From the sequence record PQ850597.1: 47,021 nt of DNA; one strand, written 5' to 3'. The notes under the pieces were generated by a model that saw only the letters and a list, made by a program, of their open reading frames with translations, did no database searches and was not told the DNA's origin. A program made the translations under genes and the position numbers. This stretch comes from Escherichia phage ChristineMuster_Bas80. This document shows, piece by piece, positions 1,254 to 46,757 of the stretch; positions within the stretch are counted from its first letter, which is position 1, and every line of letters begins with the position of its first letter.

Positions 1254-2675
1254 ATGGCTCGTAAACGCCTCTCTGCACTGGCAATCGAAAAACTGGAAGC
1301 GCAGATTGATGATGCAATGACAGATGTCGCCGAGTCAGCCATCTTTGGCATCTGCGATATGCAGAAGAACGTCATTAAGCGGTTAAGGATGACTGCTACT
1401 GGCGTTGATGACGTGACCAATGCAACCACTCATGCCGACCACCTGATTCCAGCAAAGCTGGAGCGATTGCTTTACCCGAAGCCGTGGAAGGTTGTTTATG
1501 GTGGCCGTGGGTCGGCAAAGACCCGCACAGTATCGACAATCCTTACCGAGTCGGCAAGGTTCAAATCAGAGCGTATCGGGTGCTTCCGAGAGATTCAGCA
1601 ATCAATTGAAGACTCCAGTTATCAGGAACTGGTGGACGAGATTGATCGCAAAGGAGAATCAAAAGAGTATCGCTGCATTGATGGCAAGATTACCCACAAG
1701 AAGACTAAATCAAAGTTCAGGTTCCGTGGCCTTTATCGCAACGTGACTGGCGTTAAGGGTTTTGCTGGTATCACGAAGGCATGGATTGAGGAGGCTGAAA
1801 ACGTCAGTCAGGCATCATGGGATATTCTTGAGCCTACCGTGCGTAACCCCGGCGCTGAAATATGGGTAACATTTAACCCTAACAAAGAAACCGACGCCAC
1901 ATGGACGCGCTGGGTGGCTCCGTGGCACGACAAAATGGTAAACGGAATTTACGAGGATGATGAAATACTCATCATTGAGTGTAACTGGACCGATAACCCG
2001 TGGATGACAGAGGAACTAATCCGCTCAAAAGATAAAATGAAGCGCGTAGATTTCGACCGCTACATGTGGATATGGGAGGGCAAATTCAACAAGCGCAGCG
2101 ACGAGCAGGTCTTCGGTGGTAAATGGCGCATTGATAACTTTGAGGTCAAACCTGAATGGCATGGTCCATACTTCGGGATGGACTTCGGATTCAGTACGGA
2201 CCCTACCGCAATGGTTGAGGTTTACATCGAAGAATTACCAGGTGGACGGCGCAATATTTATATTAATCGCGAGTACGGCAAGGTTGGTCTTGAGATTACC
2301 GATACGCCAGCCGCAATGGAGCAATCATTCCCGATGGCTAAGCGCGCTCGATGGTATGCCGACTGCGCTCGACCAGAAACTATCAGTCACATCAAGCGTT
2401 CTGGGTTCGATATTCACCCATGCACAAAATGGCCGGGAAGCGTTGAAGATGGCGTTACGTGGCTGCGCGGCTGTGACAGAATCGTCATTCACGAACAATG
2501 CAAGGAAATGCAGAATGAAGCGGCAATGTACAGCTATAAGGTTGATAAGCTGACAGGGAATGTGCTGACTGATATTGTTGATGCATATAACCATTACTGG
2601 GATGCTGTTCGCTACGCCCTCAATGACCATATCGTTCAGCGCGGTAGCGGAATGCTAATCCGGCGCAGGCGATAA
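1254..2675 (+). CDS. Terminase large subunit
   Basis: About 470-aa product with Walker-A-like VVYGGRGSAKTRT near the N-terminus and an acidic-residue-rich C-terminal nuclease-like half; follows small-subunit candidate. In-frame ATG at 1185 is an alternative start. Confidence 0.8.
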   Translation: MARKRLSALAIEKLEAQIDDAMTDVAESAIFGICDMQKNVIKRLRMTATGVDDVTNATTHADHLIPAKLERLLYPKPWKVVYGGRGSAKTRTVSTILTESARFKSERIGCFREIQQSIEDSSYQELVDEIDRKGESKEYRCIDGKITHKKTKSKFRFRGLYRNVTGVKGFAGITKAWIEEAENVSQASWDILEPTVRNPGAEIWVTFNPNKETDATWTRWVAPWHDKMVNGIYEDDEILIIECNWTDNPWMTEELIRSKDKMKRVDFDRYMWIWEGKFNKRSDEQVFGGKWRIDNFEVKPEWHGPYFGMDFGFSTDPTAMVEVYIEELPGGRRNIYINREYGKVGLEITDTPAAMEQSFPMAKRARWYADCARPETISHIKRSGFDIHPCTKWPGSVEDGVTWLRGCDRIVIHEQCKEMQNEAAMYSYKVDKLTGNVLTDIVDAYNHYWDAVRYALNDHIVQRGSGMLIRRRR

Positions 2676-2681
2676 AAAAAT

Positions 2682-2705
2682 AAAGCCCTCAATCGAGGGC
2701 TTTTA
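2682..2705. terminator. Rho-independent terminator (bidirectional candidate)
   Basis: gccctc-aatc-gagggc hairpin at 2685-2700 followed by TTTT, preceded by A-run; lies between convergent genes. Confidence 0.6.
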
Positions 2706-2831
2706 TCATCCTGTCATAACACTCAATATTTGACTTTGCCATTACTGTTTCTGAAAGTGAATGATAAACTTTTTCTTTATCATGAATGTCAATGCACTCC
2801 GCTTTTAACAGGGCGCAAATTGATTCAAATC

Positions 2832-3044
2832 TTAAAACATCGACGATAGAGTTTTCACACATGCTCTCAATTTCTCCAGGGTGCTCAAGCCATCTGTATT
2901 TGTCTGATTCATGATTTCCAGGCGATCTGAAGGGGTTAAGTAACCGTTCCAGATATCGTTAGCAATCTCCAGTTTTCCAGCGACATAACCAAATTCAGAG
3001 TTTTCATTTATGATTTTTTCAGCAACTTCAATTAAGTTAATCAT
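2832..3044 (-). CDS. Hypothetical protein (70 aa)
   Basis: ORF with ATG at 3044 preceded by GAGGAAAG RBS; track start at 3059 is a TTG and less likely. Confidence 0.4.
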   Translation of the reverse strand: MINLIEVAEKIINENSEFGYVAGKLEIANDIWNGYLTPSDRLEIMNQTNTDGLSTLEKLRACVKTLSSMF

Positions 3045-3077
3045 TTTTTCTTTCCTCAATTTCGTTTCAATGAGTTC

Positions 3078-3106
3078 ATTCTACGTCACCATTGAATCCA
3101 CGTCAA
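3078..3106 (-). promoter_or_regulatory. Sigma70-like promoter TTGACG-17-TAGAAT (minus strand)
   Basis: Reverse complement of 3101-3106 is TTGACG, 17-nt spacer, reverse complement of 3078-3083 is TAGAAT; about 30 nt upstream of the 3044 start. Confidence 0.5.
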
Positions 3107-3143
3107 CATTTATTATTATTGCTGATAAATCCGCATCACACGC

Positions 3144-3183: not shown

Positions 3184-3203
3184 GGCTTACCGGAGACATC
3201 ACT

Positions 3204-3410
3204 ATGCGCAGCTATGCAGGATTCACACAGGAGGAAAAAGAACAGGTTTATTCACTGGCACGAGCTGGTGTGCCTGACGAGGTAATTTGTCGTCGGTATG
3301 ACATCGACGAGGATTTTCTGCTGCGCGTTATTGATGATGTCTTCGTTAACCTGCAAGAGAAGCGCGGGTATAAGGGTATCTGCTGCAAGAATGATTTTTT
3401 GAGAGGGTGA
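3204..3410 (+). CDS. Hypothetical small protein, possible helix-turn-helix
   Basis: ATG at 3204 preceded by GGAG; 68 aa; segment QVYSLARAGVPDEVICRRYDI resembles an HTH. Confidence 0.4.
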   Translation: MRSYAGFTQEEKEQVYSLARAGVPDEVICRRYDIDEDFLLRVIDDVFVNLQEKRGYKGICCKNDFLRG

Positions 3411-3414
3411 TGTG

Positions 3415-3609
3415 ATGCTTAAGATAAGCAAGATGAGCAACAGAAGCAAGATCGGAAGGATTGCTTTACTGCCATTTTTTGTTCCTGTGTGGTTGTTGTG
3501 GGTTTTATTTTCTGGTGCAAGAAGTTTATTTGAGTATCTTGAGTTTTGGCAGAAAAATGTTATGCGAAAATTCCATGATGTCATTGATAAGTGGTTTCCG
3601 ATTGGTTGA
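3415..3609 (+). CDS. Small membrane protein (one predicted TM)
   Basis: 64-aa ORF with hydrophobic stretch IALLPFFVPVWLLWVLF; GAGGGTG RBS. Confidence 0.4.
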   Translation: MLKISKMSNRSKIGRIALLPFFVPVWLLWVLFSGARSLFEYLEFWQKNVMRKFHDVIDKWFPIG

Positions 3610-34915: not shown

Positions 34916-35401
34916 TTAGAAGGGTATTGAATCATCGAAGTCTATCGGATGCTCATTGCCTCCTTGTATGCTTTGTTGTTTTTGCTGTTGTTGTTGCTGT
35001 TGCGATTGTTGGCCTGATTGCTGTCGTGGTTGCTGCTGACTGGAATCATCACGTTTACCACCAAGCATCTGCATAACGCCGCCCACCTGTGGAATAACAA
35101 TCTCAGTGGTGTATCGGTCTACGCCATTGCTGTCAGTCCACTTACGAGTGCGTAGCTGACCTTCGATATAAACCTGCGATCCTTTGCGAAGGTATTCTCC
35201 TGCAACTTCTGCAAGTTTCCCGAAGATGACAACGCGATGCCATTCAGTTTGCTCTTTCTTTTCTCCTGTTTGCTTGTCCTTCCACTGTTCAGATGTTGCA
35301 ACAGAAAGATTGGCAATTGCAGAGCCTGATGCTGAATATTTAACTTCAGGGTCGTTGCCGAGAGTGCCGACAATAATTACTTTATTTACGCCGCGTGCCA
35401 T
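34916..35401 (-). CDS. ssb: Single-stranded DNA-binding protein
   Basis: OB-fold-like N-terminus ([18 protein letters not shown]...[12 protein letters not shown]), Gln-rich linker and acidic C-terminal tail DFDDSIPF. Confidence 0.9.
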
Positions 35402-35404
35402 TTA

Positions 35405-36448
35405 TTAAAATCCTTCAATTGGAGTTGGTTTGTGTTCTGTTTTTTCTTCCTGCGGTTCTGGCTGCTGTGGTTGCGGTTTAGCCAGTTTTGCAGGATTGAA
35501 ATTATCCTGCGGAGTTATTACCACAGGAGATAATTGCTCATCATTGATAAAAGACTCAATGCGATCATATTCAGCGGCAGAAGCAGCCAGAGAAGGCCAG
35601 ATTGCGCGAATTTTATCTTTCAGGTTATCAGGTATTGATTTTGCTTCTTCCTTCAGGCCTTCCATGCCTTTTGCTGCAGAAAGCTGAAGTCTTGAGCGCC
35701 ATGACTCAAACTCTTCGTCAACTTTAACGCCAGAGTCAACCCATTTGATGAGTCCGCGACCATGCGCCTCTCCAATATATCCATGGCGAACACTTTCACG
35801 ACCAGACTCAAAGAATATTGGGCGTAGTTCTTCTGGTAATTTTGTGAACTCCTGAATTTTGCCTCCATCGTGCATCATCATGCTCACGGTCATCTCGAAC
35901 ATGAAATCTTTCTCGCACACTGGTTGCAACCCAAGTGATACAGGTTCCTTCGGGTTTGCGAAATCAGTTTTCTGACGTGCGCGAAGGCAGACAATGATAT
36001 GCATATTGCTTTGTAGCATGGCATTCATGAACTTCTTGTGTTCAGCTTTGGCGCGCTTCCAGTCAGCCATCTTTTTACCGTTAAGCAGCGGCTTTTCAGC
36101 AATCTCCGTGCAACTGCCTTCACCTTCCCATTCATGCGAACCTGAATCAATAACAAGAACCTTAACGCCGGCAGCCTGAAACTCTTCAATGGCCTGACGG
36201 TAACGGGCCGGGCTGAATGGAGCATACATATCAGCGTGCAGGAATTTGCCATCAAGGATGTTTGAGTACAGGCGACCGCGACCGTTTTCAGTATCAAGGA
36301 ATCCGATTTCTTCTGGTGAATCAACCATCCCGCGAGCCAGCTTAAGTGCGCTATATGTTTTGCCGCTACCTGACTGGCCTGAAATGCCGATGACCACGCG
36401 AGAACCTGAACGCTCTGCTGGTTTAATATTGAGAATACCCATTTTCAT
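35405..36448 (-). CDS. RecA-like P-loop ATPase (AAA_24/Sak4-like recombination protein candidate)
   Basis: Walker A GQSGSGKT and Walker-B-like VLVIDS; sits between ssb and exonuclease genes. Confidence 0.5.
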   Translation of the reverse strand: MKMGILNIKPAERSGSRVVIGISGQSGSGKTYSALKLARGMVDSPEEIGFLDTENGRGRLYSNILDGKFLHADMYAPFSPARYRQAIEEFQAAGVKVLVIDSGSHEWEGEGSCTEIAEKPLLNGKKMADWKRAKAEHKKFMNAMLQSNMHIIVCLRARQKTDFANPKEPVSLGLQPVCEKDFMFEMTVSMMMHDGGKIQEFTKLPEELRPIFFESGRESVRHGYIGEAHGRGLIKWVDSGVKVDEEFESWRSRLQLSAAKGMEGLKEEAKSIPDNLKDKIRAIWPSLAASAAEYDRIESFINDEQLSPVVITPQDNFNPAKLAKPQPQQPEPQEEKTEHKPTPIEGF

Positions 36449-36459
36449 CACCTCACTAA

Positions 36460-37398
36460 TTATAAATTAAACTGTTTTTTGAACCATTCAGGCGTTTCCA
36501 TTTCTATGACAGGATTACCCATTGAATAACCGGGCCACGAATTGGCTTTTTTGCACGCCTTGTAAATTTCCATAGCGCCATGCAACTGAATTCGACCGAT
36601 GCGTAATTGCTCTTCAGTCAAGCGAATTAACGCAGGAATAAATGGTGCTTTCTTTTCCTGAACGAGAAGATTAACAGAGCGTGGCGCATGACCATATGCC
36701 GCAACAAACATGTCGTGCTGCATCGCCATTTTCATAAAGTACCCAAGTCTCGCAGCATGACGGAAAAACTCTTCTGGCTTGGCGCTCACCGCTGTTTTGT
36801 AGTCGATGATGTCGCCACCTTTGGTAAGGCAGTCAAAGCGAACTTTTGCCTTCTCTCCGTTAAGTTCACCTAGAATTGACACTTCAGCATAAGCACCAGC
36901 GAGAAGACTGCTGTAATAGCTGTTTGCGTGGATTACAGCACGCATTTGCTGAATAGCGTCATAATCACCACCTTCCAGCATTTGCTTTCCTACAGCAGCT
37001 TTTTCAGCCTCTTCACGGATGACATCGTAAATTTTCACTGGCTCGCCAGTCGCCTGGATGATTTTGATCACCTCAGCTTTCGACTTTCCTGAAAGTCCTT
37101 TGATGCCTCGTTCTTTTGCCCATGAGTTCATATCACTTACAGTAACAAGCAGGTCATCACCAAAATCTTCTTTGGTTGGCATTCGTGCATATTCAGCATC
37201 AAAACGCTCTGGTTCAAGCAACGCAGTATGGCTACCTGTACCGAATATAAGAGCTTTTGATTGCTCATCCTCTTCGTCTTTGTATCGCCATGCTGCTGGG
37301 CATCTGTCATATATGTTCCACAAGCCAGAGCCATTAATATGCTCTGTGTCTGCGTGGTAATCTTCATTACTGAGTTCATTATTGAAATAGACTTTCAT
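36460..37398 (-). CDS. PD-(D/E)XK-type exonuclease (putative)
   Basis: ATG at 37398 with GAGG RBS; D...D.K-like motif (FDCLTKGGDIIDYKTA). Confidence 0.45.
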   Translation of the reverse strand: MKVYFNNELSNEDYHADTEHINGSGLWNIYDRCPAAWRYKDEEDEQSKALIFGTGSHTALLEPERFDAEYARMPTKEDFGDDLLVTVSDMNSWAKERGIKGLSGKSKAEVIKIIQATGEPVKIYDVIREEAEKAAVGKQMLEGGDYDAIQQMRAVIHANSYYSSLLAGAYAEVSILGELNGEKAKVRFDCLTKGGDIIDYKTAVSAKPEEFFRHAARLGYFMKMAMQHDMFVAAYGHAPRSVNLLVQEKKAPFIPALIRLTEEQLRIGRIQLHGAMEIYKACKKANSWPGYSMGNPVIEMETPEWFKKQFNL

Positions 37399-37427
37399 TG
37401 TTAACCTCACTCATCATCACGTAAATG

Positions 37428-37456
37428 AATCTACATCAATCCACATCGAAAGGCAA
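37428..37456 (-). promoter_or_regulatory. Putative internal promoter TTGCCT-17-TAGATT (minus strand)
   Basis: Reverse complement of 37428-37433 is TAGATT with ATCTACATCA motif at 37429-37438; lies within the 3' end of the VRR-NUC gene. Confidence 0.4.
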
Positions 37457-37891
37457 GCCAAAATAGGTCAACACTGCAATCTTTATCTGGTCGAGTCCAC
37501 ACGCCACCGCAGAGAATGCACCAGCGCTGGCGCTATCGTTGAGAAACGGTATCTGTCCTGGTTGCCATTTGCTAAGCGTTGAATCATGGCGCTTCAACTC
37601 TATCGTCGCTTTATGCCACTTCACACCAGGCGTCAGGATTATCACATCAGACACCCCTGACCTGACACCTTTCCTTGCGCGCGATGACAGATGCTGCACT
37701 GAGTTGCTTTTAGTCTCCTGAGATGGATGGAACCACAGCACATCAGGAAACCGATAATCCATCCACCACTTAAACGCTATCAAGTCTGAATCCTCATGCG
37801 GACACTCGCCACGGTAACCTTCATCAAAAATTAATACCTTGTCACTCAGCTCATGCTGCTTGAATCGCTTTTTCACTATTCTCTCCTGCAA
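37436..37891 (-). CDS. VRR-NUC domain nuclease (putative)
   Basis: GVSDVIILTPGVKWHKATIELKR matches the D...E.K core pattern of VRR-NUC proteins. Confidence 0.5.
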   Translation of the reverse strand: MQERIVKKRFKQHELSDKVLIFDEGYRGECPHEDSDLIAFKWWMDYRFPDVLWFHPSQETKSNSVQHLSSRARKGVRSGVSDVIILTPGVKWHKATIELKRHDSTLSKWQPGQIPFLNDSASAGAFSAVACGLDQIKIAVLTYFGLPFDVD

Positions 37892-39797
37892 AATCTTTTC
37901 TATGGATTATGTCGCGACCTTTATCATTAATGCGATGAGTGATGCGTTTTGGCGCTTTAATCAATCCAGCATACATCATGAACTGCTTAGCATTCTGGCA
38001 TTTCAGGATTTTCCCCGCCATTGACTTATCATCAAGGTGAGGAAAAATAGCCTTTGCCTTGAACATGTTTTTCATGTGAGTCGCACCGCCATATGGGTAG
38101 AAAACTTCGTTAGCCCAGCCTTCTTTGCCATCACAACGATTAATCCAGTAGCGATACAAAATACCTTCTCCATCCTTTGTTAGCTGGACTTTGAAATCAA
38201 TAACATCAGCCCACTCATTATCGGTATACGCACGCTCATTCAGCGCCGCATTCGGGTCGCGCAACACGTGATCGCAATGTCGGCAATAACGCGCCGTCGG
38301 GTCATTTTTAGTCCCGCAGCCATCATCAAAAATACGGATTCCGTGCTTATCAAAACCGCAACGGATGTAACTGAAAAACTCTTCGCAACGACCATCTGGA
38401 GATAGTGGGTCTTTTCCTATGCAACGGCGCGCATATGGGCTGTTCATTGTTCCGCACTTAGGACACGGAACCTGTTCACCACTGCGTTTTGAACGTTGTG
38501 CTTCAGCCTCTTCCAGAATCGGGTCTTCATACAGTTGACCAAGCTCAAACATCGTTCCTGAGAAATCAAGGACCAGATGGTCTTCTTTATGATACCCGGC
38601 GTCAATTTGCTCTTTCTTCAGCAGGCGCATACCGCGACCAAGCAACTGAACAAGAAGGGTGAGTGACATTATTTTTCGTAATATCACGCTTGTATCCCAA
38701 AGCGGGATATTGACGCCAGTCGTCAAACAACCAATCTGGAAAACATATTTAATCTTGCCAGTGTATGCGTCTTTTAACGCCTTGCGTCTGGCTTTCTGTC
38801 CCATATCCTCGGTGACGATAGCGTAACTTCCTTCGGGTAAATATTTAGATGCCTCCTGACAGTGTTTTTTACCTGCGCATGTAATTAGTACGCCATTTCT
38901 GTTTTTTGTCAGCTCCATAACCTTGAGCATGATTTTCTGCGTGAGTGTCCCTTGCTCAAGTATTTCTTTCTGCATCTGCTTGAGTTGCTCGGCAGTAAAG
39001 TCTTGTGTACCGTCAACATCTGAACCATGGAAGTTATGCAGGTCATATTTCAAATCATCAACATCATGAAGACCAAAGATTGTTGGCACAACAAAACCGC
39101 GATCTACCATGTACTTTGTATCAATGTTTATTATTTCATTTTTCCAGTACGCACCTTTCATTGATTCAGTACCACGGAATGGGCTGCCGGTGAATCCAAT
39201 TGTTATCATTTCATGCCCATATCTTGCCTTGCAGCGCCTATTAAGTTCAGTAAGTATTGCGCCATATTGTGTTGTTGGATTATCACTAATAATATCCTGC
39301 CATGGAGCTTGATGGGACTCATCGATCAGGCAAAATCTTGGGGTAAAATCACTCAATCCACCTTTCTTAACGTCACCGTTTGATTCATCTTTTTTATCAA
39401 AAAGTGCGTTCGCGATTGTTCCTTCAGTACCGCATATAATAGGGTATGCTGTACTTTTCCTGCCAAGAGATGCGCTATAAAGAGAATTTTTTACACCGCA
39501 CTCCCACATCATCTCAGCATTCTGCTCAGCTATCTCCCCCTGTCTTGAAATTACAAGCCCATCCCATCCCATATCCTGAAATCTACTGCAAAGCATTGAA
39601 ATCATCACTGTCTTTCCTGATGAAACCGACGCTGTAACATAGCTTGGCTCAGGTTTCTTTCCAAAATTACGAATAACCTCAGCGCACTTTGCGTAAACAA
39701 GCCATTGGTAATCATATGGCTCTATGGAGCCTAGTTTTATTGATTTCTTTAAGTTACCTATATCAATTTCTGAAATCATCTTGTCTATTTTGTGCAT
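37851..39797 (-). CDS. Superfamily-2 DNA helicase with C-terminal zinc-ribbon
   Basis: Walker A SVSSGKT, DExH box CLIDESHQ, C-terminal CPKCG...CRHC. Confidence 0.8.
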   Translation of the reverse strand: MHKIDKMISEIDIGNLKKSIKLGSIEPYDYQWLVYAKCAEVIRNFGKKPEPSYVTASVSSGKTVMISMLCSRFQDMGWDGLVISRQGEIAEQNAEMMWECGVKNSLYSASLGRKSTAYPIICGTEGTIANALFDKKDESNGDVKKGGLSDFTPRFCLIDESHQAPWQDIISDNPTTQYGAILTELNRRCKARYGHEMITIGFTGSPFRGTESMKGAYWKNEIINIDTKYMVDRGFVVPTIFGLHDVDDLKYDLHNFHGSDVDGTQDFTAEQLKQMQKEILEQGTLTQKIMLKVMELTKNRNGVLITCAGKKHCQEASKYLPEGSYAIVTEDMGQKARRKALKDAYTGKIKYVFQIGCLTTGVNIPLWDTSVILRKIMSLTLLVQLLGRGMRLLKKEQIDAGYHKEDHLVLDFSGTMFELGQLYEDPILEEAEAQRSKRSGEQVPCPKCGTMNSPYARRCIGKDPLSPDGRCEEFFSYIRCGFDKHGIRIFDDGCGTKNDPTARYCRHCDHVLRDPNAALNERAYTDNEWADVIDFKVQLTKDGEGILYRYWINRCDGKEGWANEVFYPYGGATHMKNMFKAKAIFPHLDDKSMAGKILKCQNAKQFMMYAGLIKAPKRITHRINDKGRDIIHRKDFAGENSEKAIQAA

Positions 39798-39805
39798 TTC
39801 ATCAC

Positions 39806-40507
39806 CTATGGCATGTCAGGCCAATAAGAGTTGCTTTTAGATCTGTTTTCACTTGGTGCAAGTAATTGCAAGTTATGCCAGCAGTGAAGGCCGCAAACCA
39901 ATTTACTATTTATTGGCACTATGTGATCAACTTGCATACCAAGAACGCCAGCCATCTCATAAACCTTTTCAATTAAAACCCTTTCATGTTCAAACCATGA
40001 TGGTATCGCCCGTCTTTTAAGATACTTATATTTACGCTGATGATATCTAACAACACCCTTGTTTTTCTGTCTCCACTGTTTTGACTTCTCGTTGTGCTTT
40101 TCCTTGTTTTCATTGTAATACTTCTTTGATTTTGCGTTTATCTTGTTCTTATTTGCTGCGTAATTACCTTTCTTGAACTCTGATTGGCACTTCTTACATT
40201 CAGGCCTAAGACCATCAAGTGATGATTTGTTTTTATTGAAGTTTTCTTCATTTGCATCAAGAACTGAGTTGCATTTAGAGCATACTTTCCTTCCATCAAC
40301 AAGATATCTCAGCCTTTTACCTTTGTTTCCATCGCATGATTTACAATGAGATTTTAAACCAAGCCTCATCTTCTTATCTGAGTAGAAGTAATCACTTGTT
40401 GCAGGAAGCATTAAATTGCATCTTGAGCATTTCTTTTTTGTCCCTGTGCTTGCGCAACCTGCACTTTCCTGAGCAACATTTTGCTTTTGCAGTTCCGATA
40501 AACTCAT
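39806..40507 (-). CDS. HNH homing-endonuclease-like protein with CxxC repeats
   Basis: C-terminal VDHIVPINSK...CWHNLQLL...ENRSKSN core, preceded by CSRC...CKSC and CSKC...CKKC pairs; start at 40507 has a GAGG RBS; track start 40579 also possible. Confidence 0.55.
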   Translation of the reverse strand: MSLSELQKQNVAQESAGCASTGTKKKCSRCNLMLPATSDYFYSDKKMRLGLKSHCKSCDGNKGKRLRYLVDGRKVCSKCNSVLDANEENFNKNKSSLDGLRPECKKCQSEFKKGNYAANKNKINAKSKKYYNENKEKHNEKSKQWRQKNKGVVRYHQRKYKYLKRRAIPSWFEHERVLIEKVYEMAGVLGMQVDHIVPINSKLVCGLHCWHNLQLLAPSENRSKSNSYWPDMP

Positions 40508-40544
40508 TTCCGCAAACCTCGCACTTCTTAACGGTGATAGCCAT
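40392..40544 (-). CDS. Small Zn-ribbon ORF in alternate frame overlapping the HNH gene 5' region
   Basis: ATG at 40544 with AGAGGA RBS; product has CEVCG...CCSGKC; frames meet at an A6 run. Confidence 0.35.
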   Translation of the reverse strand: MAITVKKCEVCGNEFIGTAKAKCCSGKCRLRKHRDKKEMLKMQFNASCNK

Positions 40545-40651
40545 TTCTTGTCCTCTATTGTAACGATTAATTGTTTCATTTCAAGTAACGATTGATTGTT
40601 TCATGTGAGTAAATTACAATGATTCTACATCATCGTCAACAGGAAGATTTT

Positions 40652-41605
40652 ATGAGATACGACTGGAAAGATATTGAGCCAAAAATGCTTGGCAATTGGC
40701 AAGCTGCCATCATGTCTATCGTCAATGTGGATAGCAGAGTTTTCAATGGCAAGCACCAGCCATGCCCGTCATGCTCAGGAAAAGACAGGTATCGCTTTGA
40801 TGACAACTTCGAAACAAAAGGCGATGGCGGCGCAATCTGCAATCAGTGCGGTTCCGGCAGCGGCATGAATTGGCTGATGAAACTCTCCGGAATGAGCTTT
40901 CCTGAAGCGCTGGAGGCACTTGGTGGATTCCTGAATATGCACCCGCGTGAAAAGCTGGAGGCAATCAGGAAGGAGTTACCGAAGATAAATTACAACGATG
41001 ACTTCGTCACAGAGCAGGAAGTCGCCGCAATCATGGCTAAAACGACGCGTGTCGCGATGAATGAGTGGACTTTGATAAATGGTATTGGTTGCGACGTTAA
41101 CGTCACCAGAGGCAAATCTGGAGAACTTATTGCGGTTGAGATGATGCGAGCTGACACAATGAAACTGTGCAACGTGGCATTCATTGGCATGGATGGTGAT
41201 TCAATCAGAACGTTTTTCCGCGCAGGATACAACAAGGACTCAGCCATCAACGGCAAACTCACGCGCGGCGCGATAAGCCCAATCGGAGAAGACAACGGGA
41301 AGTTCATTTACCTGGTATCTGATTATGCCGATGCGTGGAAGTGCCATTACTTCACTGGCGCGCATGTCTGGTGCTGCTGGTCGCCGGAAAACATGTGGGA
41401 AGTGGTGCGCTCTGTTAGCAATGAGATGAAGTCACGGTTACGCTGCATAGTTAATTATAAATTTGACGAACTTTGCGCTGCGGAAAACGCAGGGATTCCG
41501 GTGATGCTTCCTGATGATGCCGACACTATCAGGATGGCAAAGAGAATCAGGAGAAAGATTTATGACGCTGGCGAGTTGATAGAAAAAATGTCAGTCAACA
41601 GATAA
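40652..41605 (+). CDS. DNA primase-like protein with N-terminal zinc-binding domain
   Basis: CPSCSGKDRYRFDD...GGAICNQCGSG pattern typical of phage/plasmid primase zinc-binding domains; AGGAAG RBS. Confidence 0.55.
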   Translation: MRYDWKDIEPKMLGNWQAAIMSIVNVDSRVFNGKHQPCPSCSGKDRYRFDDNFETKGDGGAICNQCGSGSGMNWLMKLSGMSFPEALEALGGFLNMHPREKLEAIRKELPKINYNDDFVTEQEVAAIMAKTTRVAMNEWTLINGIGCDVNVTRGKSGELIAVEMMRADTMKLCNVAFIGMDGDSIRTFFRAGYNKDSAINGKLTRGAISPIGEDNGKFIYLVSDYADAWKCHYFTGAHVWCCWSPENMWEVVRSVSNEMKSRLRCIVNYKFDELCAAENAGIPVMLPDDADTIRMAKRIRRKIYDAGELIEKMSVNR

Positions 41606-41609
41606 AAGA

Positions 41610-41636
41610 AACCCTCCATATGGAGGGTTTTTTGTT
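41610..41636. terminator. Rho-independent terminator (bidirectional candidate)
   Basis: aaccctcca-ta-tggagggtt hairpin followed by TTTTGTT. Confidence 0.65.
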
Positions 41637-42051
41637 ATTTCTTGAACTCTGGTGCTTCAGTCCAGAAGGCTACATTTCGCAGAGACTTACTCGTGTGATT
41701 GCACCAGTATATTCCTGAGTCATCATACTTGGCAGTAACCTTGACGCGATCAGTATCAATAATAACAACCTCCTGCCCATCTTTAGGGTCGAAAAGACGC
41801 GCATCCTTCCAGTTAGCAATCTCATTAAGGGAAAGAAGAACATAGCCTGGAAGATAAGCGCCGACATCAGCAATGTGAACTATTGTTCGCTCCGTTCTCT
41901 CTCCTGTGTAGTCGCCATTCCACTCATAAAGAATAACCGTGTCTCCAACCTTAAAATCACGATCGTTCTTCCTTAGTTCCGCCTTCTTGTGTCCGGTAAC
42001 AACAGGCCAGAAGTGCTCAGGTAAGATTTTTAGTTCGTGTGTTTTGCTCAT
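41635..42051 (-). CDS. ASCH-like / DUF3850-like protein
   Basis: N-terminal HELKILPEHFWPVVTGHKKAELRKNDRDFKVGD pattern recalled for DUF3850. Confidence 0.5.
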   Translation of the reverse strand: MSKTHELKILPEHFWPVVTGHKKAELRKNDRDFKVGDTVILYEWNGDYTGERTERTIVHIADVGAYLPGYVLLSLNEIANWKDARLFDPKDGQEVVIIDTDRVKVTAKYDDSGIYWCNHTSKSLRNVAFWTEAPEFKK

Positions 42052-43643
42052 TTCAACCCCCTCATAAATCTCATGCGCTTAACAGCAGCAGAAAGATAAT
42101 TTCTAACCGTTGAGTTCATTCGCAGTCCATCCCATGAACCATCGCTGCACATCTTAATCGCTCTTGGGTTATCTCTGTCCAGCATTAGTGGTGAATGCTT
42201 ATTCTCCTCAATCGCAAGAAGAACCTCATAAACAAATTTATCAGGTGTTAGTGTGATGTTATTAGAGTCAGCAGAATTAATTATCTTTTTAATTCTATCA
42301 CGACACAGCTTGTTCTTTATAACAGACAAGTAAGGCGTTTTAATGAATGCCTGTGACTCACAAATTCGCTTAATTTTTTCTACAATGTTCTCCCATTCAG
42401 TATTTTCAAGTCCATCAAACTCCTGTTCGCCCTCAAGGAATCTTTGCAGACCAGCGAGATGCTCAAGAACCACGATATATCCCCATTCGACATGCTCCAT
42501 CGTAACTGCTGGCGTCATTCCACGGCGACTTGACAGATCTGCGTAAGCCGCAAGAGTTGCAAGGTCTACAATCATCAGCCCCATGCGCGGGATAACGTCA
42601 CCAACAACACCATCGCGATCTCCAAGCTCACTTTCCAGTTTCATAGACAGAGATCTGTGCAGCTTTTTCACTTCATCATCAGCCCATACAGCGTTAGTTT
42701 TCGCGGTAAGAATCCTACCTTTCCACTCATTGATTATTTTTCTTGAAATTGTGCCGCTAACTTCCACATCCTTCATCGCTGGCATTTCCTCACCAGCAAG
42801 ATGTCCAAGCTGGAACAGCACTCGCCCCATACCGCCATCTTTCTGCCATGAACGCGCAGCATCTATTCCCTGCTCTGGAGTGACAGTAATCAGCGGAACA
42901 AATTTTGCGTTTTCAATTCCACCGTCTTTTGTTGCAATTTCGTATTCATTCATTGCCGACTTGAGCGCGCGACCAACGCTGTGGTCCATCATCGCAAGGC
43001 GCTTATAATCTATGACGCCTTTACCATCATCACCACCAGTGAGTGGAACTATCCATCCCTCAGCGCTTGCTGCCGCCATAATGCGTTTTTGGTTTTGTTC
43101 CCAAGTAAGGTTTTCAAGCAACTCCTTTATTATTGGCCTGTTAGGAACCCACACTCCGCCGTCAGTAAGACCTCTATACCACGCCATAGTGCCGCCAAGA
43201 TATGCATTACGCGGGTTGTTCCAGTCTTCAAGATGTTGCTTATCATCGTTCACAACGTAGAGCAAAGACCCACCTCCAGCAATAAGGTCTAACTGCATCT
43301 GTTTTGTCGAGGTTGATTTAGATGCGCAAACTCTGGACCCTATTCCCAGCGCGTTGGCATATGCCCTGACGAAACTCACCGGCGCACCCTTACCTGCACC
43401 AGAGCGAGCTACCAGAAATATGCCGGTATTGCAGATACTACCTGTTGGACCAATCAAATATCGGCCAGCCATCGCCTGAGTAAGGCCCAATGCACCAGTT
43501 AAACGATACCTCTCACCATCATTACGGCGCTCAAAGTTTTTCGCAATCTCATCCATAAACTCACCAAGTGCACCAGGAGCATCCCTATTCATACCCATAG
43601 CCATGGACTCAAAATCAATAGCGCCCATCAATATACCCTCCAT
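42048..43643 (-). CDS. Hypothetical protein (531 aa), possible P-loop NTPase
   Basis: Long ORF in replication block; Walker-A-like ARSGAGKG and hydrophobic-DD segment LLYVVNDD; function unknown. Confidence 0.45.
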   Translation of the reverse strand: MEGILMGAIDFESMAMGMNRDAPGALGEFMDEIAKNFERRNDGERYRLTGALGLTQAMAGRYLIGPTGSICNTGIFLVARSGAGKGAPVSFVRAYANALGIGSRVCASKSTSTKQMQLDLIAGGGSLLYVVNDDKQHLEDWNNPRNAYLGGTMAWYRGLTDGGVWVPNRPIIKELLENLTWEQNQKRIMAAASAEGWIVPLTGGDDGKGVIDYKRLAMMDHSVGRALKSAMNEYEIATKDGGIENAKFVPLITVTPEQGIDAARSWQKDGGMGRVLFQLGHLAGEEMPAMKDVEVSGTISRKIINEWKGRILTAKTNAVWADDEVKKLHRSLSMKLESELGDRDGVVGDVIPRMGLMIVDLATLAAYADLSSRRGMTPAVTMEHVEWGYIVVLEHLAGLQRFLEGEQEFDGLENTEWENIVEKIKRICESQAFIKTPYLSVIKNKLCRDRIKKIINSADSNNITLTPDKFVYEVLLAIEENKHSPLMLDRDNPRAIKMCSDGSWDGLRMNSTVRNYLSAAVKRMRFMRGLK

Positions 43644-43918
43644 ACTCGCAAGAATTTGCCAGGGATAATACCTTGTTTCACAGTTACCACCGCACCAGCC
43701 CTGTCAGCCTCAATTTTTATCGCCTTCTGAAGTGACGTCATTGTCATCTGAAAACCTCGCTCTATATCGTATGCGTAGCACCCATCTCTTCCACCAATCA
43801 AAATTGAAGTTGAATACCCGTTCTCAAAGTAAAACTGACACCCATCAGGAGCTGTAAGATTATTTATCACGTCGTGAGCAAGAGATGTCGTGACAGGGAA
43901 TATCTGAGCGCAACTCAT
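43628..43918 (-). CDS. Hypothetical protein (96 aa)
   Basis: ATG at 43918 with GGAGGT RBS. Confidence 0.4.
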   Translation of the reverse strand: MSCAQIFPVTTSLAHDVINNLTAPDGCQFYFENGYSTSILIGGRDGCYAYDIERGFQMTMTSLQKAIKIEADRAGAVVTVKQGIIPGKFLRVWRVY

Positions 43919-43920
43919 AC

Positions 43921-44160
43921 CTACCTCCACCCCATGTGTAACAATAAAATTTCGTCTTTATCAACATTCACCAACACCTTGATACCCATATCCCTTGAAA
44001 CAATACTGACATTTGTTCGAAAACTCGGTAACCCCATCGCGCGCGCACGTTCCCAATCTTCACCACAAACAAACCACCCATCATGCGTTCTCCTCAGGCG
44101 CTTAAGTAACCCGTACACCCACTCAAGATTTGACCCTTTACGGTAATTTAGTTCTTTCAT
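43921..44160 (-). CDS. Hypothetical protein (79 aa)
   Basis: ATG at 44160 with GGAGGTAAGT RBS; first gene after the iteron region on the minus strand. Confidence 0.4.
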   Translation of the reverse strand: MKELNYRKGSNLEWVYGLLKRLRRTHDGWFVCGEDWERARAMGLPSFRTNVSIVSRDMGIKVLVNVDKDEILLLHMGWR

Positions 44161-44260
44161 ACTTACCTCCATCTCCAGTGACTCTAATTTTATATAAATA
44201 AAAAAGATATGCAATTCTAATATGTGCTGGCTGTACAGTTTGGCTAATTTTTGCTCGATT

Positions 44261-44618
44261 TATACCGTCTTTACCTGGTTTTTACCGTGCTATTTTTGAT
44301 GCAACTAATTGATTAATAAGATTTTACCGGTTTTACCGGATTTCTTAAGTGGTATTTTAATTATTAAGATTGGCAGTGTATTAATTTGATCTAATTTTAA
44401 TAAACTTAAATAAAATCAATATATTAATATGAATGAATAACTTACTTACCTCTATAGAATTTACCGGGTAAAACCGGTAACTCCTCCGCAAGCCGCGCCA
44501 TTGCTGGCTTCATTTTTACCACCTGTAGGTAAATACAGTAGTTTTTAAGTGATAATTGTTTTGGTAAGCTGTTGATTACCGGTGCTTTATTTAAAAAACC
44601 GGCATTTACCGGTATTTT
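44261..44618. repeat. Iteron array: at least 10 copies of TTTACCGG-like 8-9-mers flanking an AT-rich core
   Basis: Copies at about 44263, 44271, 44281, 44323, 44332, 44461, 44471 (inverted), 44514, 44576, 44597 (inverted) and 44605; AT-rich stretch 44341-44460. Confidence 0.6.
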
Positions 44619-44688
44619 GTGGAGTGATTAATAAGTGCGCAATTAGTCCTTGTTTACCAGAATCAACAAGTGCGAAACCTAAATAATG

Positions 44689-44717
44689 TTGACGTAGAAA
44701 CATCATTGATGTAGATT
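44689..44717 (+). promoter_or_regulatory. Sigma70-like promoter TTGACG-17-TAGATT driving the early plus-strand genes
   Basis: TTGACG at 44689-44694, 17-nt spacer, TAGATT at 44712-44717; two tandem TTGAYGTAGA half-sites 17 bp apart. Confidence 0.55.
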
Positions 44718-44747
44718 GAACTCATCGGAACAAACGAGGGTGAAGAG

Positions 44748-44933
44748 ATGAACAAAGAAAGCACGTACAGCATCGACCAGATGAAGTTGTTCAGCGATAT
44801 ATGCATGGCATTGTCACAACAGGTTCCAAGTCTACCTGCTGATATGCGCTCAAATGCCATCATTGATGCGGCAAACATGATTTGTGAGGCATATGCTATG
44901 ACTGAAGATGAATATAAGGCATCGAAGAAATGA
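44748..44933 (+). CDS. Hypothetical small early protein
   Basis: GAGGGTGAAGAG RBS, first ORF after promoter. Confidence 0.4.
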   Translation: MNKESTYSIDQMKLFSDICMALSQQVPSLPADMRSNAIIDAANMICEAYAMTEDEYKASKK

Positions 44934-45481: not shown

Positions 45482-45954
45482 GTGAAGTTAAAACATACGC
45501 AGTAAACTGCAACGACGCGTGGCTTAATACAGATGGCGATGACATCTCTGGCTCATATGTTAAGTATGCTGATTACATAACTCTTGCAACAAAGCTCGAT
45601 TTAGCCGAGCGTGCTTGCGCTGCCGTGGTGGCAGAGAGCGCGGCGTTTAAGGACATAAACGCATGGTGCAAAACGGATGCGTTCAGCAACATGTATCGTG
45701 AGTTCAAAACAGCAGAAGCTGTTGGTTGTTGCAACATTGACTGCATGCATGACGCAATGGTTGTCGCAATTATGCACGCACCTGAAGCGACAGTTACAGA
45801 TGCTTTCCTGGCTGAAATTGAACGCAAAGCAATCCGAAAGTTAATTAACAGCATTGAACACATCCTGCGTGACAAGCTGTCTCCGTATGACACCGAAGAG
45901 ATGCTTGAGGCTATGCGTATTTTTCTGGAAGAACAGGGAGGTGAGCAAAAATGA
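45478..45954 (+). CDS. Hypothetical protein (158 aa)
   Basis: ATGA-coupled ORF. Confidence 0.45.
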   Translation: MSEVKTYAVNCNDAWLNTDGDDISGSYVKYADYITLATKLDLAERACAAVVAESAAFKDINAWCKTDAFSNMYREFKTAEAVGCCNIDCMHDAMVVAIMHAPEATVTDAFLAEIERKAIRKLINSIEHILRDKLSPYDTEEMLEAMRIFLEEQGGEQK

Positions 45955-46298
45955 CGATAACAAAACAACGGGTAGAAGAAATCATATCCCGTATTGAAAT
46001 GTATGGGCATGGTGCCGGGTATACCGCTGATGAGGTTTATGACCTTGCTGTACTGGCGCTGAATTTATCAAATATCGCAAAACTCAAGCGATACGAGCTT
46101 GATATGGATGGTTGTGACTCGTTCGGTCAGGATTGCGGTGCAGACATGACTGAAGACCCTGAAGGCGAATTTGTCATGTTCAACGATGTTGTCAGTCTGG
46201 TTCAGTTTGACACCACCAACCAGCAATTCGAAAGCCTCAGCAATCACAAGCATCACTTCATCAACGGCACTTGCGTAGAGTGCCTGAAAAGTGAATAG
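45951..46298 (+). CDS. Hypothetical protein (115 aa)
   Basis: ATGA-coupled ORF. Confidence 0.45.
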   Translation: MTITKQRVEEIISRIEMYGHGAGYTADEVYDLAVLALNLSNIAKLKRYELDMDGCDSFGQDCGADMTEDPEGEFVMFNDVVSLVQFDTTNQQFESLSNHKHHFINGTCVECLKSE

Positions 46299-46436
46299 CT
46301 ACCCGTTCATATTAATTATCAGTGCGCTCTATGTGGCGCACGCTTTACAAACGACGCAAGTACACCACCGGCGCTAAAATCTTTCTTGCTGTGTATGTGC
46401 TGGCACTGGTGGCAGCTATTGCAGGAGTTGTGCATT

Positions 46437-46757
46437 ATGTTTAATAAATTAGCTGAGTTTTATAAAGCATATTCAGACTGGATTGATGCTGGCGCGCCAG
46501 AAGGTAAGCCGTTCAGTCGTAATTGCGGTATTTGTGTGTCCTTAACATTGCATTTAAAGGACATTGGGTTAACACCAAAGGAAAGGGAGCAGGCAAGAAA
46601 GTTAATGCGATCGCAATTCATTAAAGCTGGACTTAATGGTGACTACCCATTTAACAACCGAGAACTACCATATTTAACAGAAAGCGCAAGAGGAATGATT
46701 CACACCAACAAGAACCGCATAGCGTGGGTTAAAAAGGAGTGGCAGCATTATGTTTAA
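46437..46757 (+). CDS. Hypothetical protein (106 aa)
   Basis: ATG at 46437 with AGGAG RBS preferred over track start 46386. Confidence 0.4.
   Translation: MFNKLAEFYKAYSDWIDAGAPEGKPFSRNCGICVSLTLHLKDIGLTPKEREQARKLMRSQFIKAGLNGDYPFNNRELPYLTESARGMIHTNKNRIAWVKKEWQHYV

Follow-up and report, generated by a model that had tools for sequence, protein, structure and literature searches.

A candidate replication origin with opposed iteron arrays, and its putative MCM-like initiator helicase, in Escherichia phage ChristineMuster_Bas80

We analysed the DNA of Escherichia phage ChristineMuster_Bas80 (PQ850597.1; 47,021 nucleotides with a GC content of 46.5%, here called the window) around a non-coding gap that carries an array of short repeats and that is, in our view, probably a replication origin. 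The gap comprises 587 bp (44161-44747) between the starts of a leftward gene for a 79-residue protein (p79) and a rightward gene for a 61-residue protein. On its left lies a leftward block encoding p79, a 96-residue protein (p96), a 531-residue P-loop protein and an ASCH protein, and on its right a run of small early genes begins at 44748. A sequence-only reading of this DNA had described about 530 bp without a convincing open reading frame (ORF) at 44215-44740; the gap is real, but its extent is slightly larger. Between 43600 and 45100 the window is 99.9% identical to Escherichia phage ClaudiaMuster_Bas77 (PQ850598; hereafter Bas77), a Skatevirus-like virulent siphovirus and member of the BASEL collection. 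In the public record of Bas77, two coding sequences, for the 36-residue Bas77_0082 and the 38-residue Bas77_0083, are placed over the repeats and the AT-rich core of the gap, at positions corresponding to 44381-44491 and 44587-44703 of the window, both on the minus strand. No coding sequence is annotated in the gap in the record of phage ASO78B, and the records of Bas81 and ZCEC08 show other small coding sequences there on the plus strand. Bas77_0082 and Bas77_0083 are probably spurious gene calls. A scan of 43900-44900 against Rfam returned no RNA family.

The repeated element of the gap is TTTACCGG. With at most one mismatch, it occurs 52 times in the window as compared with 22.8 +/- 5.1 times in shuffled sequences, and 10 of these copies fall in the gap, where 0.53 would be expected from the remaining genome (Poisson P = 3e-10). 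Four of the five perfect copies in the window are located in the gap, as are 6 of 11 occurrences of the sub-motif TTACCGG, 10 of 40 of TTTACC and all five of ACCGGTA, which is found nowhere else. Eight of the 10 copies are forward and two inverted; about four more degenerate copies are present, two of them inverted, and the base preceding TTACC is T in 10 of 15 copies. The sequence-only reading had reported at least 10 copies, mostly direct with two inverted, and had proposed a count against a shuffled control as a check; its copy number and orientations agree with ours, and the enrichment held up in that count.

The copies lie on both sides of the AT-rich core, five forward ones at the left and at least eight at the right. 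Farthest left is a group of three degenerate forward copies on the plus strand (44261-44288), namely TATACCGT at 44261, TTTACCTG at 44270 and TTTACCGT at 44281, spaced by 9-11 bp, whose positions are kept in ASO78B, Bas81 and ZCEC08 and also in phage swi2, there in the swi2 version of the repeat. The inner left pair (44323-44339, plus strand) consists of two perfect TTTACCGG copies at 44323 and 44332, 9 bp apart and directed toward the core; an equivalent tandem pair, with copies 8-9 bp apart, abuts the AT-rich core in swi2, BUCT541, KLB16 and the metagenomic relative P0092. In the inner right group, TTTACCGGGTAAAACCGGTAAC (44460-44481), a forward copy (44460-44467) overlaps inverted copies at 44465-44472 and 44474-44481, the two inverted copies being 9 bp apart and aimed back at the core. 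This group is invariant save for one G-to-T change in ZCEC08, and its layout is the same in swi2. Because the inner left copies are forward and the inner right copies inverted, the core is bracketed by two tandem pairs that face each other. Six outer right copies of mixed orientation (44515-44660) extend the array to 44660: TTTACCAC (plus strand, 44515), TTTACCTA (minus strand, 44526-44533), CTTACCAA (minus strand, 44561-44568, a weak copy), ATTACCGG (plus strand, 44575), a further TTTACCGG (plus strand, 44605) and TTTACCAG (plus strand, 44653).

The core itself (44341-44459) is a candidate DNA-unwinding element of 119 bp with a GC content of 18.5%, the lowest of any 120-bp stretch in the window (the next lowest being 26.7%), and contains the invariant block AATAAAATCAATATATTAATAT; the very AT-rich, repeat-flanked core that had been placed at 44341-44460 was therefore correctly recognised. 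An 80-bp segment of 11-25% GC lies between the repeat arrays in each of the relatives examined, and the repeat pairs in opposite orientation bracket 82-119 bp in these relatives as compared with 119 bp here. Three of the five matches in the window to the IHF core consensus WATCAANNNNTTR are found in the gap (44302-44314, minus strand; 44414-44426, plus strand; 44565-44577, minus strand), and the one inside the core (44414-44426) is invariant in Bas77, ZCEC08, ASO78B and Bas81, although the genome-wide total of five, with 3.3 expected, is not above chance. DnaA boxes (TTATCCACA) were absent from the gap at up to one mismatch and numbered three, with 2.2 expected, at up to two mismatches. A DnaA-dependent origin was rejected, there being no cluster of such boxes; nor were GATC sites clustered in the gap.

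At the right edge of the gap, the sequence-only reading had noted that the array ends in a promoter of the form TTGACG-17-TAGATT. This candidate rightward early promoter is present at 44689-44717 on the plus strand, followed by the leader and ribosome-binding site of the 61-residue protein gene (start 44748), and belongs to the best-conserved part of the gap. Specifically, the last 60-65 bp (44683-44747; promoter, leader and ribosome-binding site) share 88-97% identity with about 35 listed relatives, which are phages of Salmonella, Escherichia, Shigella and Klebsiella; in total there are 154 matching records, and the unlisted ones mostly fall at 80-90%. One of the matches bears the name Acinetobacter phage vB_AbaM_AB4P2, with a host that is unexpected among these phages. 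By these comparisons, the rightward promoter is part of a conserved early region and outside the repeat module that is swapped among relatives. At the left edge, we read by eye a candidate leftward promoter, TTGCAT-16-TAAAAT (44187-44214, minus strand), which may serve the operon of p79, p96, the 531-residue protein and the ASCH protein; it was absent from the tool scan because its -35 element matches at just three of six positions. ASO78B has TTGCGT-17-TATAGT at the equivalent relative position. A further minus-strand site resembling a promoter (44348-44321) covers the inner left pair and is weak in ASO78B; it was discarded as probably a by-product of the repeat sequence.

The repeat region could be aligned in only four records, Bas77, ZCEC08, ASO78B and Bas81, and these are exactly the records in which the 531-residue protein is 94-100% identical. 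In the four-phage alignment, the repeats and the AT-core block are conserved against an overall identity of about 82%. More distant homologues of the protein are accompanied by other repeats. For example, in swi2 (protein identity 52%) the repeat is AGTTACCGG, at the same positions and with G before TTACC in 13 of 15 copies; in BUCT541 (58%) it is GAGTTCCC / GGGAAC; and in KLB16 (34%) it is TTTACTA / TAGTAAA. Among metagenomic contigs found by profile search, P0092 (E 4e-80) has TTACCAA / TTGGTAA, P0094 (E 3e-52) has AATCACTGG / CCAGTGATT, and P0091 (E 8e-147), which is truncated, has TTAACCG. In every complete relative, the forward copies are proximal to the gene for this protein, the 80-bp window of 15-25% GC is central and the inverted copies are distal. 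At least two repeats per side in opposite directions were found here and in the loci of swi2, BUCT541, KLB16, P0092 and P0094.

The phages DS8, Vi II-E1, HC6 and Bas78 carry in the same slot a sequence-unrelated 517-residue DUF3987 helicase (phrog_2373), and there CCCCACG repeats surround a core of 11-14% GC. The comparison thus points to at least seven repeat types accompanying seven variants of the 531-residue family, with another type accompanying the DUF3987 helicases. In DS8 (positions 3190-3215 and 3425-3485 of locus L004) and Vi II-E1 (3194-3218 and 3425-3449 of locus L005), a 25-bp near-palindrome, GTGGGGCAACCAACCTGCCCCACGA, flanks the AT-rich core on both sides, with extra CTGCCCCACG copies at the right; the Vi II-E1 record labels these only as 'repeat_region'. 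In two further phages, the same slot is occupied differently. Segz_1 (locus L011, 2353-2865) has a 495-residue 'DNA primase' together with GGATAAA-type repeats (DnaA-box-like TTATCC) and tandem CTCAAAAATCTAT units, and YX3973 (locus L012, 1553-2861) has a 778-residue primase/polymerase, repeats of the form GGCATTTA / AAATGCC and a stretch of about 1.3 kb that bears no annotation.

An identity matrix of the neighbouring genes showed that the repeat sequence co-varies with the 531-residue helicase family and in part with the small p96-family protein, but with no other neighbour. Across DS8, Vi II-E1 and swi2, which represent three different types of repeat, the primase retains an identity of 92-96%, and for the early proteins the values in Bas78, DS8 and HC6 are 90-100%. 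Primase and early proteins were excluded as specificity determinants because they are near-identical in phages with other repeats. Of the three binding factors that had been suggested from the sequence alone, namely the 531-residue P-loop protein, the primase or an early protein, only the first therefore tracks the repeats. The ASCH protein was likewise rejected as the repeat reader, being 96% identical in DS8 despite the different repeats there. Bas77 and Bas78, which are 96-99% identical genome-wide, provide a natural swap: their largest non-homologous block (Bas77 41481-44528, corresponding to window 41639-44686) is about 3 kb long and holds the ASCH gene, the helicase gene, p96, p79, the repeats and the AT-rich core, and homology returns at window 44687, two bases before the -35 element of the rightward promoter. 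The ASCH protein is not tied to the helicase, since it lies in the swapped block and yet matches its DS8 counterpart at 96% identity, although DS8 carries the other type of helicase.

The small proteins between helicase and repeats, p96 (43628-43918, minus strand), a possible accessory factor, and p79 (43921-44160, minus strand), its distant paralogue, belong to a loose family of 67-97-residue proteins encoded just upstream of initiator helicases. The family occurs beside both MCM-like and DUF3987 helicases, and the window carries two diverged paralogues. However, the loci of KLB16, DS8 and Vi II-E1 (6-7.5 kb) yielded no homologue, and DS8 and HC6 share the same repeats and a 99.8% identical helicase although their small upstream proteins are unrelated. 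On this comparative evidence, the small protein is not required for the association of helicase and repeats. Other members lie at 2318-2846 of locus L002, 2600-2878 of L006, 2609-2887 of L007, 795-998 of L015 and 2188-2406 of L009. The model of p96 (predicted local distance difference test score, pLDDT, of 82) has the order helix, three strands, helix, two strands, and gave no convincing fold match.

The 531-residue protein (42048-43643, minus strand), the proposed initiator, is a putative AAA+ helicase of the MCM-like kind in the pre-sensor-II-insert clade. Its start lies 0.5 kb from the origin region, with two small genes between, whereas in KLB16 the two are directly adjacent. It has a Walker A motif (SGAGKG), a Walker B-like motif (LYVVNDD) and a predicted C-terminal winged-helix-like domain at about 435-526; among seven homologues, S81, G82, G84 and K85 of the Walker A motif SGxGK(G/Q) and D133 of the Walker B-like LLYVVNDD are invariant. 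Neither phmmer nor profile searches gave a match in Pfam, NCBIfam or the sequences of the PDB, and a Pfam scan showed that a PF13148 (DUF3987) match is lacking in the protein and its close homologues; BLASTP against the DS8 DUF3987 protein found nothing. The protein does match PHROG 3022 in part, over the C-terminal helicase part of primase-helicases. A profile search of 1.84 billion representatives yielded 75 relatives, including proteins fused to PrimPol/archaeo-eukaryotic primase (AEP) domains and the Pfam DUF3987 protein P0100, which provides a transitive link (E 1.4e-11 to the family profile and E 2.6e-10 to PF13148). In the AlphaFold model (pLDDT 72; predicted template-modelling score, pTM, 0.61), the predicted fold has an AAA+ core closest to that of MCM. 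DUF3987 proteins are replicative helicases related to MCM that carry a winged helix-turn-helix (wHTH) at the C-terminus and are encoded beside primases (PMC4889955), and one of them, the AgaPH helicase, is a 5'-3' helicase that binds its primase-polymerase (PMC11724360). Here, too, a primase gene of the DnaG type lies beside the helicase gene, 0.45 kb away.

Taken together, these comparisons make it likely that 44260-44660 is a replication origin and that the 531-residue MCM-like helicase is its sequence-specific initiator. The sequence-only reading had recognised iterons and an AT-rich unwinding element as origin architecture, and the comparative evidence supports this. The gap may have a secondary role as a 'regulatory hub', the other function then suggested, but such a role accounts for its anatomy less well. 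As to how the origin would work, we infer binding of the repeats, a DNA-reading domain in the helicase, melting, double-ring loading and bidirectional synthesis. Host RNA polymerase would transcribe outward from both ends of the gap, from the conserved rightward promoter and the candidate leftward one, and the helicase made from the leftward transcript would bind the TTTACCGG repeats, probably via its C-terminal winged-helix-like domain. The two facing tandem pairs, with their 9-bp spacing, would place one helicase ring on each side of the 119-bp core, which would then melt, possibly aided by divergent transcription and IHF, and the separate DnaG-type primase and a host polymerase would begin synthesis in both directions. 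The outer degenerate repeats would increase occupancy locally and might also influence the flanking promoters by feedback, and the recombination module encoded at 34916-39797 may take over later.

Several points weigh against this interpretation. The literature searched yielded no assay of marker frequency, binding or plasmid replication in this group of phages, nothing that connects DUF3987 with iterons, and no description of an origin in Skatevirus, ASO78B or swi2. Alignment of the 531-residue family with the DUF3987 family by hhalign was weak (7% probability), and it is because of this weak direct profile comparison that we term the protein MCM-like or DUF3987-like and not a member of PF13148. 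Only one of five AlphaFold2 models, built from a seven-sequence alignment, was confident (pLDDT 72 as compared with about 50 for the others), and the DNA-reading domain is uncertain because the putative recognition helix (467-479) is hydrophobic and acidic, not basic. The cumulative GC skew has its global minimum at 44-45 kb; this is not independent evidence, since it coincides with the switch in gene orientation. Much of the replication may be origin-independent because a recombination module is present. In addition, within the subset of Bas77, swi2 and BUCT541 the p96-family protein also co-varies with the repeats, and in these phages it might itself read the DNA or act as a co-factor.

In one alternative, the locus is still an origin, but the repeats are read by stand-alone origin-binding proteins of the p96/p79 family that recruit an MCM-like helicase lacking sequence specificity. 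The space separating helicase and repeats does hold a gene for a 67-97-residue member in ASO78B, swi2, BUCT541, the P0092 contig and Bas77, which has two paralogues, and probably also in HC6 and Bas78; in the series of Bas77, swi2 and BUCT541 it diverges in step with the repeats. We nevertheless regard this arrangement as unlikely: KLB16 shows the full layout of repeats and AT-rich core with no p96-family gene in 7.5 kb, and DS8 and Vi II-E1 have the repeats and helicase of HC6 and Bas78 but, in place of the small protein, an unrelated AP2-like 90-residue protein or a pseudogene. Alternatively, the repeats might be operators that time the divergent promoters, with replication starting elsewhere or by recombination. 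The array does lie between divergent transcription units, its outermost copies lie upstream of the -35 elements at a distance of about 30-45 bp (44653-44660 relative to 44689, and 44261 relative to 44214), the promoter-like minus-strand site covers the inner left pair, and a recombination module is available. However, the conserved rightward promoter is outside the swapped module and unchanged whatever the repeats, the repeats follow a helicase and no recognisable transcription factor, the distance of most copies to either promoter exceeds 100 bp, and opposed pairs bracketing the most AT-rich 119 bp are the layout of an origin for an initiator helicase, not of operators (PMC9371898), so that transcriptional control alone is quite unlikely in our estimation.

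A packaging site (cos or pac), consisting of repeated binding sites for the small terminase subunit and an IHF site, was also considered, as the circular map places the region upstream of the genes for the HNH protein and terminase, at about 2.3 kb, and the gap contains three of the five IHF-consensus matches of the window. The repeats, though, are part of the helicase cassette, and early genes spanning about 1.3 kb lie between them and the HNH gene. Moreover, in Bas77 and Bas78 the large terminase subunit (TerL), the HNH protein and a 147-residue protein are 99.8-100% identical though the repeats differ, and TerL (1254-2675) is just 63% identical between the window and Bas77 though the repeats are identical, the HNH and 147-residue proteins encoded upstream of it being 99-100% identical. 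Because the repeats are thus dissociated from the packaging genes in both directions, this reading was rejected as highly improbable.

The closest analogue of the proposed origin and helicase is the Rep/ori system of Staphylococcus aureus pathogenicity islands (SaPI); the origin is thus of an already known kind, not previously pointed out in this phage group. The Rep helicases of SaPI bind 6-12 iterons via a C-terminal winged helix; these iterons are placed around an AT-rich region in the centre, at least two of them to its left and two to its right, in opposite orientation (PMC9371898). Both systems have repeats on either side of an AT-rich centre, beside a gene for an AAA+ helicase and with a primase nearby, and at least six short repeats of 5-9 bp in non-coding DNA, as expected of a repeat cluster of the SaPI type, are represented here by about 14 copies in 400 bp. 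The repeat sequence is specific to each Rep variant in SaPI and, as far as comparison of relatives can indicate, to each helicase variant here. SaPI Rep is a self-loading initiator helicase with a C-terminal winged helix, and the same is proposed for the 531-residue protein. The two systems differ in that the SaPI ori is immediately downstream of rep, whereas the present one lies between divergent promoters, upstream of the operon that encodes the helicase; in that SaPI is a satellite, whereas the present host element is a virulent enterobacterial siphovirus; and in that the motor here is MCM-like and the primase is DnaG-type, encoded by a separate gene on the opposite strand. The DUF3987 (PF13148) helicases, which are related to superfamily 6 (SF6) and MCM, resemble our protein in being P-loop proteins of about 500 residues encoded next to a primase; they also have the MCM-like fold and C-terminal wHTH that are predicted for it (PMC4889955). 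A true DUF3987 protein occupies the same slot in DS8, HC6 and Bas78, with its own repeat origin, but the 531-residue protein is unlike it in having no PF13148 match, no BLASTP similarity to the DS8 protein and only the low hhalign probability given above.

The alpha protein of satellite phage P4 is a fused primase, superfamily 3 (SF3) helicase and DNA-binding protein, whose C-terminal DNA-binding domain recognises octamer repeats (TGTTCACC) at ori and which needs a distant second repeat cluster, crr. The window resembles P4 in having a primase-helicase system, with a P4-alpha-type zinc ribbon in the primase, but differs in its separate primase and helicase genes, its MCM-like helicase and its single locus with two arrays around an AT-rich core. 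In SV40 large T antigen and papillomavirus E1, the initiator is also the helicase (of SF3), with the origin-binding domain N-terminal to the motor, and inverted sites beside an AT-rich segment direct two opposed rings. Cellular MCM is loaded by ORC, Cdc6 and Cdt1 without reading sequence itself. Head-to-head loading of MCM is discussed in PMC9371898. In comparison with the MCM double hexamer, T antigen and E1, double-ring loading in the present system is suggested by site orientation only. Phage lambda O with ori-lambda and the iteron plasmids with RepA, RepE or Pi likewise have direct repeats by an AT-rich unwinding element, a cis-encoded initiator and possible autoregulation, but their initiators are not helicases and recruit DnaB via P or DnaC (PMC4980987, PMC7466680). 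The lambda repeats are inside the O gene, whereas ours are in an intergenic gap without DnaA boxes. To our knowledge, no cognate two-array repeat origin has been defined for Cch (structure 5dgk) of the staphylococcal cassette chromosome SCCmec or for the MCM-like helicases of Bacillus cereus prophages, and no relationship of the 531-residue protein to these helicases was detectable by sequence.

The DnaG-type primase gene (40619-41605, plus strand) encodes a primase-helicase zinc ribbon (PF08273) and is a partner in the replication module that is not matched to the iterons. The ASCH/DUF3850 protein, PUA-like and putatively RNA-binding, is encoded directly downstream of the helicase in the replication operon (41635-42051, minus strand). 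The recombination module, on the minus strand, encodes a single-stranded DNA-binding protein, an AAA_24 (Sak4-like) ATPase, a PDDEXK/DUF3799 exonuclease and a 648-residue superfamily 2 (SF2) helicase with zinc ribbons, and RusA is also counted in it. No phage DNA polymerase was found in the Bas77 annotation or among the window ORFs scanned. The window as a whole (e.g. 1299-3123, 37872-39704 and 45590-46734) is a mosaic relative of Bas77 and not Bas77 itself, with segments that are 85-99% identical and others without a match. A 257-residue ORF between the SF2 helicase and primase genes (39806-40579, minus strand), with endonuclease VII/HNH-type PHROG matches, has no counterpart at the same site in Bas77, but Bas78 does carry a gene of equal size (Bas78_0076); the ORF has the appearance of an inserted mobile homing endonuclease.

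The data give Skatevirus-like phages, some of which belong to the BASEL reference collection, a concrete candidate for their origin and its initiator. At present the helicase is annotated in them as 'hypothetical' and probably spurious genes are drawn on the repeats, an annotation that can be corrected. More tentatively, and at slightly short of even confidence, we propose that these phages carry interchangeable, orthogonal 'helicase + origin' cassettes in which a helicase of the MCM clade reads repeats of 7-9 bp and loads as two opposed rings without a loader. If so, bacterial viruses would have an equivalent of MCM double-hexamer loading that dispenses with ORC and Cdc6, and the natural specificity variants, at least seven in number, would let the DNA-recognition code be read off. 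Each helicase variant, with its own repeat in a near-identical genome, forms a natural data set for DNA recognition by MCM-like and DUF3987 helicases, and the series may be a source of orthogonal replicon parts for phage engineering. In the evolution of these phages, the proposed replication-initiation module is exchanged as a 3-kb cassette, the right boundary of which lies just before the -35 element of a promoter conserved in about 150 phages.

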